NCBI GenBank assembly: GCA_964016885.1
Contig: OZ024744.1
Span: 73,904,001 to 73,968,000 of the forward strand
Source of the DNA: Eledone cirrhosa
Taxonomy: Eukaryota
DNA length: 64,000 nt
Direction: 5' to 3'
Shown: one piece after another, positions 28,919 to 62,234 of the stretch
Layout: each line of letters begins with the position of its first letter
Position numbering within the stretch: position 1 is the stretch's first letter
Made by a program: the position numbers and the translations under genes
Notes under the pieces: generated by a model
The model's input: only the letters and a program-made list of their open reading frames with translations
Told to the model about the DNA's origin: nothing
The model's database searches: none

Positions 28919-28965
28919 ATTCTACAGGACTAGAACTGTTTCATTCTTTAGAAATCATCAGGAAT
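28919..28965 (-). ncRNA. Hammerhead ribozyme motif (left arm of perfect palindrome)
   Basis: Exact reverse complement of 28964-29010. Confidence 0.75.
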
Positions 28966-29010
28966 TCCTGATGATTTCTAAAGAATGAAACAGTTCTAGT
29001 CCTGTAGAAT
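28964..29010 (+). ncRNA. Hammerhead ribozyme motif (family C)
   Basis: attc-CTGATGA-t ttc taaa gaa t-GAAA-cag ttctagtc ctg-TA-gaat. Confidence 0.75.
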
Positions 29011-40144: not shown

Positions 40145-40202
40145 TTATCTGACGAGGACGTACTGAAAAAACAGCACAGTACCTTCGAAATATATATAAT
40201 AA
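40145..40202 (+). ncRNA. Minimal hammerhead motif (family D-related)
   Basis: ttat-CTGACGA-gga c gtactg..cagtac c ttc-GAAA-tatata-TA-ataa. Confidence 0.7.
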
Positions 40203-46594: not shown

Positions 46595-46657
46595 ATTTTA
46601 TTATATATATTTCAAGGGGTACCAAGGCAGCGTTTGTGCGCTTTCATCAGATAAAAT
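46595..46657 (-). ncRNA. Minimal hammerhead motif
   Basis: Minus strand: attttat-CTGATGA-aag...ctt-GAAA-tatata-TA-ataaaat. Confidence 0.75.
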
Positions 46658-46797
46658 ATAAGATTTGTTTTATAAATATTGACATACCCGTGGAAAAACA
46701 ACCTTGACGGTTGAAAGTTCGCTGGATAGTCAGTGAACTGTCAACCGTCAAGGTTGCTTTTCCACGGTTATGTCAATATTTATAAAACAAATCTTGT

Positions 46798-46860
46798 ATT
46801 TTATCTGATGAAAGCGCACCAAGACTGCCTTGGTAGCCCTTGAAATATATATAATAAAAT
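46798..46860 (+). ncRNA. Minimal hammerhead motif
   Basis: attttat-CTGATGA-aag..accaag/cttggt..ctt-GAAA-tatata-TA-ataaaat. 7-bp stem I. Confidence 0.8.
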
Positions 46861-51502: not shown

Positions 51503-51561
51503 ATTTTATCTGATGAAGGCGTACCAAAGTGTTGGTACCCTTGAAATATATATAATAGAAT
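51503..51561 (+). ncRNA. Minimal hammerhead motif (family D)
   Basis: attttat-CTGATGA-agg c gtaccaa agtg ttggtac cctt-GAAA-tatata-TA-atagaat. Confidence 0.8.
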
Positions 51562-55699: not shown

Positions 55700-57517
55700 A
55701 GCACTCTTGAACCCAGTACAATCTGTCCCATGGTCGGGTCGTCGAAGTCTAAACCGGCAACCCCATCAACTTTACTTGGTGAGGAGGATGATTTTGGACA
55801 CCCTCCAGGACAAAAAAGAAAACCTGAAAAAGGGCGGAAGAACTCATAAGAGCAATGGTATGCTCCTGCTGCAGATGTGTGAGGAGCTGGATCTGTGAGT
55901 TACCAACACCATGTTCCAACAATAGAACAAATTTAAGACTACATGGATGCATCCTGCATCTAATGAATGGCATCTTTTGGACTACGTCCTTCTCAGGATG
56001 CGTGACAGATGGGATGTGCAGTGTGTTCGTGATCTTCGTGGAGCTGGGTGCTTGATGGACCACCGCCTGGTACGCGCAAACGTGAAACTAATCACTAAAC
56101 GTAAAATCCGGGTTCCTGGTGTTACCCTGCCCAGAAGATTGAATGCTGCTCGTCTTAGGGATAAAAATGTGAAGAGGACATTGCGAGAATAGATGCAGGT
56201 TGCAGATCTTGGTGAGGATTGTCCGACACTTAAAAAGTCGGTTTATGATGTAGGCAGGCGTGTTCTGGGATTGGTGCAGAGAAAACAGCAAGACTGGTTT
56301 AATGAGAATGATGAACATATAAAAGACTTGTTGGCTGATAAGAGGTGGGTTCTGTCACGCTACGTGACGGTAAAACCACAGGAGAGGAATATGTTGCATA
56401 AGGAACTCAAGGATGTGAAATCACGTGTTAGGCGGAGTTTTTCTCAGATGAAGGATCAGTGGTGGAGTGAGAAGGCTGGTGAGATACAAACTGCGTCAGA
56501 TCCCAATAACACAAAGCTGTTGTACAGTCTCTTGCGTGAAGTTTATGGAGCGTCTTCATCTCTGGTGCCACCGCTTCGCAGCAAGGATGGCAAAGAACTT
56601 CTTCATGACTCACAAGGAATTCTAGGAAGGTGGCGAGAGCACTTTCATGATCTTTTGAATCAGCCGTCTGTCGTCAATGAAGATTTCCTCAATCTCATTC
56701 CAGAAAGTCCTCTGAAAGTAGCTCTCGCAGAACCTCCGACGGATTTGGAGGCTGCAGTGGCTATCTCGAAGCTGAACAGTAGAAGGTCTCCAGGTATGGA
56801 TGGCATACATGCAGAGCTCCTACAATATGGTGGTGAGAGACTTCTGCAACATCTTCACTCTTTGTTTGGCAGGATATGGGCTAATGAATCCGTACCTGAA
56901 GACTAGAGAGATGCAGTAATGGTGGTCTTGTACAAGGGAAAGGGTAACAAGAATGATTGTGGGAACTACAGAGGTATATCATTGCTTTCTGTCGTAGGGA
57001 AAGTTTAATGTAGGGTGCTTCTGGACCGTCTCCTGACACACATTGCAGATTGTGTTCTTCCTGAAAGTCAATCTGGTTTTCGTGCTGGATGCGGCACTAC
57101 TGATATGATCTTCTCAGCTAGACAGCTCCAGGAGAAGTGGATGGAACAAGGTTTGGATCTGCATCAGGTTTTGTCAATCTGACAAAAGCTTTCGATACTG
57201 TTAACAGACATGCATTATGGGTTGCCCTGATAAGTTCCTTGCTTTAGTTAGGTCTTTCCATGACGACATGAAGGCTTGGGTTAATGTCGGATGTAATATG
57301 TCGGAGCCTATCTCAGTAAAAAAATGGAGTGAAACAGGGGGATATTCCAGCACCGACCCTGTTTGCCTTATACATTGCAATAGTTTTCTGTATTGCATTC
57401 AGGAATTGCGAGCATTGTGTTTACATCCGATATCAAACCTCAGGCAACATATTTAACATCAGGCGCTTTCCTGCAAAAACAAAAGTATTTACATCAATCA
57501 TAAGAGACCTCTCTTAT
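55700..57517 (+). mobile_element. RTE (BovB-like) LINE, 5' UTR joined to partial EN and RT
   Basis: TTWMHPASNEWHLLDYVL..DHRLV, SPGMDGIHAE, CGNYRGISLLS, ESQSGFR..DMIF, KAFDTV and VKQGDIPAPTLF. 5' UTR shared with 63137-63330. Confidence 0.9.
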
Positions 57518-57607
57518 GATTCACCGAACATTTATTATAATGCTCGGTGTGTTTGTAAACAAACGTATTAAGCCGTAGTGTCTAGCAACAATCTGGCAGG
57601 AAAGTAT

Positions 57608-57650
57608 ACGTTGCTGACGATAGTTAATAAGCTTGAAACTAGTACAGCGT
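57608..57650 (+). ncRNA. Minimal hammerhead motif, tandem copy 1
   Basis: acgttg-CTGACGA-t agtt aata agct t-GAAA-ctag-TA-cagcgt. Confidence 0.8.
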
Positions 57651-58029
57651 TCCTTTGTCAGTGTTGAACAAACGAGCAACGATGGTTGCTAGACACTACA
57701 GCTTAATACGGGATGTTTGTTTACAAACACACCGAGCATTATAATAAATGTTCGGTGAATCCATACGTACATATATATATATGTGTGCATGTATGTATAT
57801 ATATATACATACTACTGTACATCTGTATACATATATGTATGTACGTGTACATACTTATATTTAAGTAACAGCCGTACTAAGAGTGGGAAATGAAATTTCG
57901 TTTCATTTTTTCCGTTTATCGTTTTCGGTGCACCCGGCCGATTAACCCACTCGATATGCAAATATGGCTACTCAGCCGTTAATATGCATATGGTAAGTAT
58001 ATACGTTCAACAATCTGGCAGGAAGGTAT

Positions 58030-58072
58030 ACGTTGCTGACGATAGCTAATAAGCTTGAAACTAGTACAGCGT
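58030..58072 (+). ncRNA. Minimal hammerhead motif, tandem copy 2
   Basis: acgttg-CTGACGA-t agct aata agct t-GAAA-ctag-TA-cagcgt. Palindromic stem III ACTAGT. Confidence 0.8.
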
Positions 58073-58270
58073 TCCTTTGTCAGTGTTGAACAAACGAGCA
58101 ACGATGGTTGCTAGACACTACGGCTTAATACGGGATGTTTGTTTACAAACACACCGAGCATTATATTAAATGTTCGATGAATCCATATGTACATATATAT
58201 ATGTTGGCATGTATGTATATATATACTATATATACTACTGTACGTCTGTATACATATATGTATGTACGTG

Positions 58271-60297
<2,027 letters not shown>

Positions 60298-61372
60298 TTC
60301 GATCTATACGTGGATATTTTACGTCTCGATGTGGGAGCTAAGTATATGTTTGTTTATACCTTTACTTATTTGCATAGGTAAGTATATATTATCCGTATGT
60401 TGTGTGAAGGTACGTATACCTTCGCGTACGTATATTTGATCGTTATGGCGTATAATTTCTTTATATTTCTGGTACATATGGTTCGGCTATGTGTATACGG
60501 GAGTTTTGCGTCTGTGTGAGTATGCATGTTCGTACGTATGTAGGGCATGTGTATATGTGTACTTCATGTTTTGGTGGACATACGTCTCCGAACATTCGTG
60601 TATTTACATGTAGGTATGTGTGTGCGCTTGTTATATACGTATTTGTTTATTTATATACGTTTATATAATTATTTATTTATTTGTAGACACGCTTACACAC
60701 ATACACATATTTATATGTGCGTGGTTTTGTTTACCTATGGTAAGTTTTGCGTATGCTTGTGTATGTACGTATTTGTTTGCGTGTTTGTATTTATTTATTT
60801 CTATTACTTCTGTATTGTATTTAATTACTTGGTTCTTAACTCTGTAGCGGAGATTCATTCGGTCTCCTAGTTAGAATTTAGTCTACCACTTCTGCTATAC
60901 CATTTACGTGGTTTTATCTTTGCGTGCTATTGTTCTCCACGCTCCACATATGACGTATTATCTTCGTTTTTTCGTTCATTGCCAGAGAACGTCTCTATGC
61001 ACCACCTAAGAGAACATTAGTCTACGACCTCTTTTATACCATAAACGTGGTTCTGTCTTTGCGCGTAATTGCTTTTCACCGCTCCTATTACCTATTAATG
61101 ACGTATTATATTCTTTTTTTCCCGTTCTTAGCCAGCGACCGTTTCCACGAACCAAAGTATCGTCTTCCTGTCTTCCTCCGGTTGCAATGTCTTTTTAAAT
61201 ATCCAGTTCTGCGTTTACAGATTGACTTTGTTAGTTTCAGAAGATCCATTCTTTGCTTAAACTTTAATCTGTTATTTTAATAAATATTTGCTCTAGGGTT
61301 CTTATATATTTGATATATATTTATCCTTATCGAGCCCTCTTTGGATTTTAGTCTTCAAATTTATTATTATTA
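60298..61372 (+). mobile_element. PLE 3' UTR and terminal pLTR (family B)
   Basis: Follows the ORF, carries about 140-bp subrepeats, and ends with the family B tail at (TA)n. Confidence 0.65.
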
Positions 61373-61373
61373 C

Positions 61374-61511
<138 letters not shown>

Positions 61512-61589: not shown

Positions 61590-62077
61590 AAATCAATATA
61601 AATTTAATCTAAATCAAATTAAGGGTGTCATGCCAGAAAGACATGCGCCATATCACCCGTAATATAAGCTCCAAGATTCTAATGAATAGGTCCGAGCATT
61701 TTATAACAACTAGAATTTGATTAACATATAAATAAACATGAAACAATCACAGGGGATAATTTGTAAAAGTGTGTAAGCACACAGAGCTATGTAGGTAACT
61801 AAATAAAGATTAACTAGAACTTCAAAAATAGATACCTTATAAAATGATTAATCTTTCTTGTATATATTCCATTAAAGAAATATATGGTGAAATATATTTC
61901 TTTAATGGAATATATACATGGTAGATTAATCATTTTATCAGGTAACTATTTTTGAAGTTCTAGTTAAACTTTATTTAGTTACCTACCTAGCTTTGTGTGC
62001 TTACACACTTTTACAAATTATCCCCTGTGATTGTTTCATATGTTTATTTATATGTTAATCAATTTCTAGTTGTTATA
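61590..62077. repeat. Family E fold-back element, about 375-bp palindrome
   Basis: Arms 61702-61884 and 61892-62077 pivot at ggtGAAA; a tail lies at 61590-61700. Confidence 0.8.
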
Positions 62078-62234
62078 TATATAAATATATATGTAAGTAT
62101 ATTATTGTTGTTGTCGTTATTATTATTATTTTGTTATTATTATGGGGGGTATTTTTGTTGTTTTTTTCTCGTGCAATGGCTGTACTCAATAACGAGGGGG
62201 CAGCCATCATGTATGTATGCATGTGTATATGTAT

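Follow-up and report, generated by a model that had tools for sequence, protein, structure and literature searches.

According to a 2020 review, the repeats of animal retrozymes show no motif that would reveal the retrotransposon mobilizing them (PMC7761336). Involvement of Penelope-like elements (PLEs) was proposed in 2020 and argued in a 2026 preprint from homology to PLE pseudo-LTRs (pLTRs) and from co-occurrence, in a text that itself describes its evidence on the life cycle as limited (10.64898/2026.07.22.740005). For PLEs, the "tail" is described in vitro as the product of two internal start sites of reverse transcription downstream of the hammerhead cut (PMC11167929), and inverted arms and (TA)n targets are reported as traits of the group (PMC8557442).

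The window considered here, a 64,000-nucleotide (nt) stretch of the Eledone cirrhosa genome, contains what is by its sequence a 1.7-unit copy of a high-copy, noncoding hammerhead repeat, i.e., a non-LTR retrozyme. We put the probability at about 70% that this element moves as a self-cleaved, religated RNA circle copied by a PLE reverse transcriptase (RT)-endonuclease supplied in trans. The initial annotation had likewise proposed a nonautonomous ribozyme retroelement mobilized by a PLE RT, a proposal now supported by the number of copies, by arms in both tandem and inverted arrangement, by the two fixed positions at which 3′ ends fall, and by insertion at (TA)n. The features of the locus are listed below, with unit positions numbered from the first base past the predicted cut (+1).

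55700 to 57512, plus strand: decayed RTE-type LINE, separate from the unit, breaking off just before its YADD motif
57518 to 57593, minus strand: inverted arm (unit +37 to +117), eroded and without the fixed end present in intact inverted arms
57586 to 58301, plus strand: direct arm of about 1.7 units, stopping at fixed end E1 and followed by a (TA)n tract
57608 to 57650, plus strand: type I hammerhead 1, core 57614 to 57644, predicted cut after 57644, U·G wobble in helix II
57645 to 58066, plus strand: noncoding monomer of 422 nt, predicted RNA circle, 37% GC, predicted to be 70% paired
57852 to 57860, plus strand: internal copy of E1 (unit +216), placed by fold prediction in a hairpin loop, putative RT start 1
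57861 to 57919, plus strand: tail of 59 nt between E1 and fixed end E2 (unit +275), putative RT start 2 at 57919
58005 to 58091, plus strand: type I hammerhead 2, extended bulged helix I, core 58036 to 58066, predicted cut after 58066
58302 to 58561, no strand: (TA)n tract, the usual sequence past element ends
58564 to 61376, plus strand: 5′-truncated PLE of the Hydra clade, family H1, separate from the unit, own ends at about 61287 and about 61376

Two near-identical minimal hammerheads had been annotated in this region. The two motifs are present, their cores (CTGACGA...GAAACTAGTA) ending at 57644 and 58066, i.e., at predicted cuts spaced by 422 nt, but the term "minimal" does not apply: helix III is made up of CUAG and a single A-U pair, the 4 bp of helix II lie above a U·U mismatch, and helix I is long and bulged, which rules out the minimal PLE-type hammerhead. 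The architecture resembles the canonical axolotl types, unlike the minimal PLE type, which is defined by a lack of helix III nucleotides or of elements for loop-loop contacts. Helix III is weak and palindromic, as in HHR_Amex1, and the base of helix II is a U·U, as in HHR_Amex2; the axolotl canonical type I hammerheads are described as cleaving well only as dimers (PMC7229834). The palindrome ACTAGT occurs in both window copies (57638 to 57643 and 58060 to 58065), and its suggested suitability for dimer pairing is borne out by prediction: because closing helix III as a hairpin would cost 5.4 kcal/mol, whereas the ACUAGU duplex between copies is predicted at −6.8 kcal/mol, cleavage is predicted to be dimeric.

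Among 18 aligned copies (17 of them distinct), the core is invariant in all 18 except at N7, and 94.1% of cells in the alignment pair. Double changes occur in only 2 of 28 pairs, in related sequences, and helix I carries compensatory changes, such that the alignment lends modest support to conserved pairing. Several clear compensatory swaps distinguish the subfamilies in a downstream hairpin; RNAalifold on the variable hairpin region returned almost nothing (−0.34 kcal/mol), probably through misalignment at indels. An Rfam search at E values of up to 1 detected no hammerhead, only microsatellite-driven and weak matches. Folds of 61 nt were no better than shuffled sequences (z scores of 0.61 and −0.83), and those of 121 nt gave z scores of −2.0 and −3.65.

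Other hammerhead-like motifs in the window lie at 40149 to 40198, 46602 to 46650 (minus strand), 46805 to 46853, and 51510 to 51554; in these, helix III would form from ATATAT. The pair near 46600 to 46850 lies downstream of another piece of a Hydra-like open reading frame (ORF) and forms an inverted end with two arms (the piece spans 48489 to 47578, minus strand). A divergent pair of another small hammerhead-like motif (28931 to 28998) forms a short palindromic insertion beside (TA)n and recurs at locus L048, and a long imperfect inverted repeat beside (TA)n at about 61710 to 62080 is probably another two-armed PLE end.

The arrangement of direct repeats preceded by an inverted partial copy is as first annotated: the repeats match at all but 5 of 180 positions, and the inverted copy (57518 to 57593) adjoins the direct arm at a junction with a sequence microhomology of 7/8 nt. 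The window monomer has no stop-free run above 53 codons, in keeping with the claim that the unit lacks an ORF, and its circular fold (z = −7.9) is predicted to form helices I and II. Circular folds surpassed their shuffles in all seven monomers folded (30 shuffles each; z = −4.9 to −10.8), the low z scores being due in part to a TA-rich hairpin.

To the left, the LINE, which we take to belong to the RTE clade, had been described as truncated by the unit. It does break off there, yet the boundary is not a normal element end; it is a short fold-back join at 57496 to 57521, at which the inverted arm stops at unit +117, without E2. This junction is likely a deletion scar from repair. The continuation of the LINE was not found within the window or the next 6 kb.

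A search of the 3.0-Gb genome for arrays of the unit, as the initial annotation had advised, recovered a dispersed family with up to seven tandem units. Exact matches to the hammerhead pattern number 28,572, compared with 11 when the pattern is reversed as a control, so the window hammerheads are far beyond chance, and the first 100 matches listed all contain the hammerhead of the window family. Complete monomers (n = 67) span 387 to 538 nt, and ATG frames of 47 to 137 codons are present among them. Over 69 arms from the first 100 positional matches, 54, 8, 3, 1, 2, and 1 carry 1, 2, 3, 4, 5, and 7 hammerheads, respectively, a distribution (54/8/3/1/2/0/1) with a heavier tail than a geometric one.

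Several members of the family are unusual in their setting. At L008/L009 (C27), the unit has turned into a satellite of about 763 bp (about 340 bp of other DNA joined to the monomer), and at L069 to L072 and L200 (C4), units of about 430 bp form a long satellite array that contains higher-order blocks. An insertion of the young subfamily (L158, 5101 to 5995) lies 5 to 6 kb past the right end of the window. At L088 to L093 (C1, 5540423 to 5543960), an insertion of six units plus an inverted arm sits between outward-facing H1 pieces that have the same start position.

Arms end at one of two fixed positions, unit +216 (E1, window 57860) or +275 (E2, window 57919), 59 nt apart. With ten loci set aside because their arrays are satellite-like or segmentally repeated, we counted 89 E1 ends, 97 E2 ends, and 134 read-throughs, where E1 is called as the lack of a tail and a clean landmark is absent in 14 of the 89. 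At least three TA repeats follow 171 of the 186 ends. Divergent two-armed insertions pair one E1 with one E2 in 55 of 61 cases (P of about 3e-11), or 23 of 27 by a stricter count; two of the six unpaired exceptions look like miscalls. Both ends are also kept in subfamilies that have diverged by about 25%. Divergent neighbors outnumber convergent ones by 11 to 1 among the 100 positional matches, and an inverted, 5′-truncated arm lies beside a direct arm, as in Penelope-like insertions. In the genomic sequence, then, the two fixed ends, paired in two-armed insertions, are the Penelope tail signature.

Whether the template is a circle or a linear RNA bears on an alternative that we regard as unlikely, namely, that the unit is a nonautonomous PLE copied from linear, uncleaved tandem transcripts, with DNA duplication restocking the long arrays and the hammerhead being incidental or acting elsewhere. 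We retrieved 100 positional matches to the first 19 bases past the cut. Of the 74 within the fetched regions, 72 arms continue upstream past the cut into hammerhead sequence and 2 stop at approximately that position; among the remaining 26 matches, 24 adjoin full hammerhead matches and one adjoins a mutated hammerhead. Cleaved linear monomers are thus not the usual template, although uncut RNA predicts the same read-through equally well. The PLE PAc, for which the hammerhead is reported to be dispensable for insertion in vitro, uses mainly uncleaved RNA as the substrate (PMC11167929), so linear multimers could give similar copies; in addition, only one of nine Xenopus retrozyme dimers was reported to be cleaved in vitro, leaving eight uncleaved (10.64898/2026.07.22.740005).

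The composition of multimers speaks to the same point. Across 83 sites in 52 insertions, the 55 pairs within insertions diverge by 1.2% and the 3,348 pairs between insertions by 12.7%, and the nearest neighbor of 49 sites is a sibling in 27, tied in 15, and in another insertion in 7. One insertion (L191) has seven direct and two inverted units, with two differences across nine 160-nt segments; that several identical units can occupy both arms of one insertion argues against linear transcripts, as do the conservation of the catalytic core while its flanks diverge by about 25% and the reported accumulation of the coral, mussel, and axolotl retrozymes tested as circles. The older subfamily to which the window copy belongs lacks this homogeneity (4.5% within versus 3.9% between insertions), and some arrays have alternating ABAB patterns (as at L192) or higher-order blocks, which fit duplication at the DNA level, as do the long satellites, and agree with the linear alternative. 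Together, read-through and the homogeneity of young multimers favor, without proving, a circular template.

A circle could also replicate from RNA to RNA in the manner of a viroid, with the genomic copies as by-products of a PLE RT. Young insertions each have their own structure-preserving hairpin alleles, as such replication would produce, but thousands of genomic source copies combined with selection for folding explain these alleles as well, and no minus-strand ribozyme was noticed in passing; we consider this the most improbable of the readings weighed here.

The neighbor on the right invites a different interpretation, in which the unit is the pseudo-LTR of a coding PLE, either that of the adjacent ORF or one not seen. 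The initial annotation had described this ORF as near-intact and as a hint of the mobilizing PLE. The first description does not hold: the ORF lacks about 130 N-terminal residues relative to other copies and has a stop at 60103. The Hydra clade is described by RWK-like, DKT, and CxCX5C motifs, a C-terminal GIY-YIG domain, and (TA)n targets (PMC8557442), and H1 (RWR, DKT, and CNCRNRVDC, the last of the form CxCX5C) is assigned to that clade by motif comparison rather than by a tree. A Pfam search of the Hydra ORF returned no match. One regular-expression pattern located no canonical hammerhead in H1; such hammerheads are reported to be universal in Hydra PLEs. The 3′ untranslated region of H1 (window 58564 to 61376 and L032 to L050) contains a 139-nt internal repeat, and its tail is 89 nt long.

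An ORF adjacent on the same strand is what the pseudo-LTR interpretation would predict, a coding ancestor is plausible, and Xenopus retrozymes are reported to be homologous to pLTRs (10.64898/2026.07.22.740005). Against it, the true 5′ end of H1 comes after the tail of H1 itself, and within 1.5 kb the unit occurs at none of the 19 other H1 loci and the H1 ORF at none of 29 other unit loci. As H1 has its own termini and the unit is missing from all 19 other copies, adjacency loses its value as a hint of the mobilizing element. At some loci, unit and H1 are found together, usually separated by (TA)n tracts and in no constant orientation, as expected of two elements that both insert at (TA)n. Furthermore, copies of the unit adjoin one another head to tail with no ORF, where an autonomous PLE has an RT-GIY-YIG ORF between pseudo-LTRs; having no such ORF of its own, the unit is ruled out as an autonomous PLE. 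Given these observations, we judge the pseudo-LTR interpretation very improbable.

The search that the initial annotation had called for, for ORF-bearing PLEs with the unit's terminus, found none among the best-scoring candidates checked (the 19 other H1 loci plus five wider regions, 30 GIY-YIG loci, 4 long-ORF loci, and 29 other loci of a second Hydra family, H3). The GIY-YIG loci are presumably mostly Neptune-like. At these, the long-ORF loci, and the other H3 loci, terminal homology is absent, barring separate insertions nearby. H3 (L205 and L210 to L239) is very young (10 of 40 matches are 100% identical, with 2,161 first-look candidates) and carries a hammerhead of its own as well as a tail of about 90 nt. 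The unit is fused directly to H3 at L205 and to a 92% identical relative at L209; each chimera is bounded on one side by a retrozyme terminus and on the other by a Hydra terminus, the two being of complementary E1/E2 type. Insertion combined with deletion suffices to explain these chimeras, so we do not accept them as proving template switching, and we treat the H3 fusions as a lead only toward the partner. At L117, a plain retrozyme insertion lies in a Hydra ORF, with a short duplication. A Hydra-clade protein appears to be the likeliest donor of the RT.

Returning to the circle copied in trans, we envision the following cycle. Tandem copies would be transcribed; two hammerheads would pair via ACUAGU and cut out a monomer; and a host ligase would circularize the monomer, a reaction that RtcB carries out on other retrozymes in vitro. 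A PLE protein that targets (TA)n would then cut both DNA strands, with cDNA primed at E1 from one end and at E2 from the other; the RT would travel around the template for less than one to about seven turns, and the joining of the two cDNAs would yield the divergent arms. More tentatively, at slightly less than even odds, a Penelope-type (probably Hydra-clade) RT may perform twin-primed, rolling-circle reverse transcription on a ribozyme-made circle without sequence homology to the RT's own element. Against the circle copied in trans speak the length of the unit's tail (59 nt, versus about 90 nt in the two local Hydra families), the heavier-than-geometric distribution of arm lengths, and the absence of a homologous terminus among the candidate partners checked.

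By every feature testable in sequence, the unit is an animal non-LTR retrozyme. As described for these elements (PMC7229834; 10.64898/2026.07.22.740005), it is noncoding and tandem, with one type I hammerhead per unit, a GC content below 50%, a self-paired fold, thousands of copies, and forms from monomers to multimers. The unit length in the family, 387 to 538 nt, lies at or above the top of the 2020 range (150 to 450 bp; PMC7229834) and within the 2026 range (10.64898/2026.07.22.740005). With PLEs, the unit shares a pair of neighboring fixed ends that lie 3′ of the hammerhead cut (PMC11167929; PMC8557442) and, as set out in PMC8557442, an inverted 5′-truncated arm, partial tandems, and the (TA)n targets of Hydra and Naiad PLEs. 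It differs from them, as described, in having no ORF, a tail of 59 rather than 30 to 40 nt, a canonical rather than a minimal hammerhead, and up to seven complete units per arm. The nonautonomous PLEs of Chlamys, e.g., MRC1, are likewise noncoding, head-to-tail multicopy insertions, but they are reported generally to share 3′ sequence with autonomous families, whereas the unit has no homologous partner among the candidates; in addition, the Chlamys elements are described as mostly lacking hammerheads, whereas the unit has one (PMC8557442).

The signature is borne by a family that comprises more than 28,000 hammerheads and includes young members, and this genome also harbors a young Hydra family. 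Both the identity of the enzyme that moves retrozymes and the question of whether the RT rolls around a circle are now directly testable. Should the rolling-circle reading be true, the class of enzyme that moves animal retrozymes would be identified, the inverted arms of PLEs would reflect paired priming at two tail sites, and a substrate of 420 to 470 nt would be available for reconstitution. In term look-ups, the main texts of the two retrozyme papers (PMC7229834; 10.64898/2026.07.22.740005) mention neither tail nor inverted arms, although their supplements could show end structures, and a search of main texts, including few subscription journals, found no published report of a tail or paired-arm signature in retrozymes. 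Overall, this is a retrozyme family whose insertions themselves carry the two-site signature of PLEs and give unusually clear evidence of mechanism.
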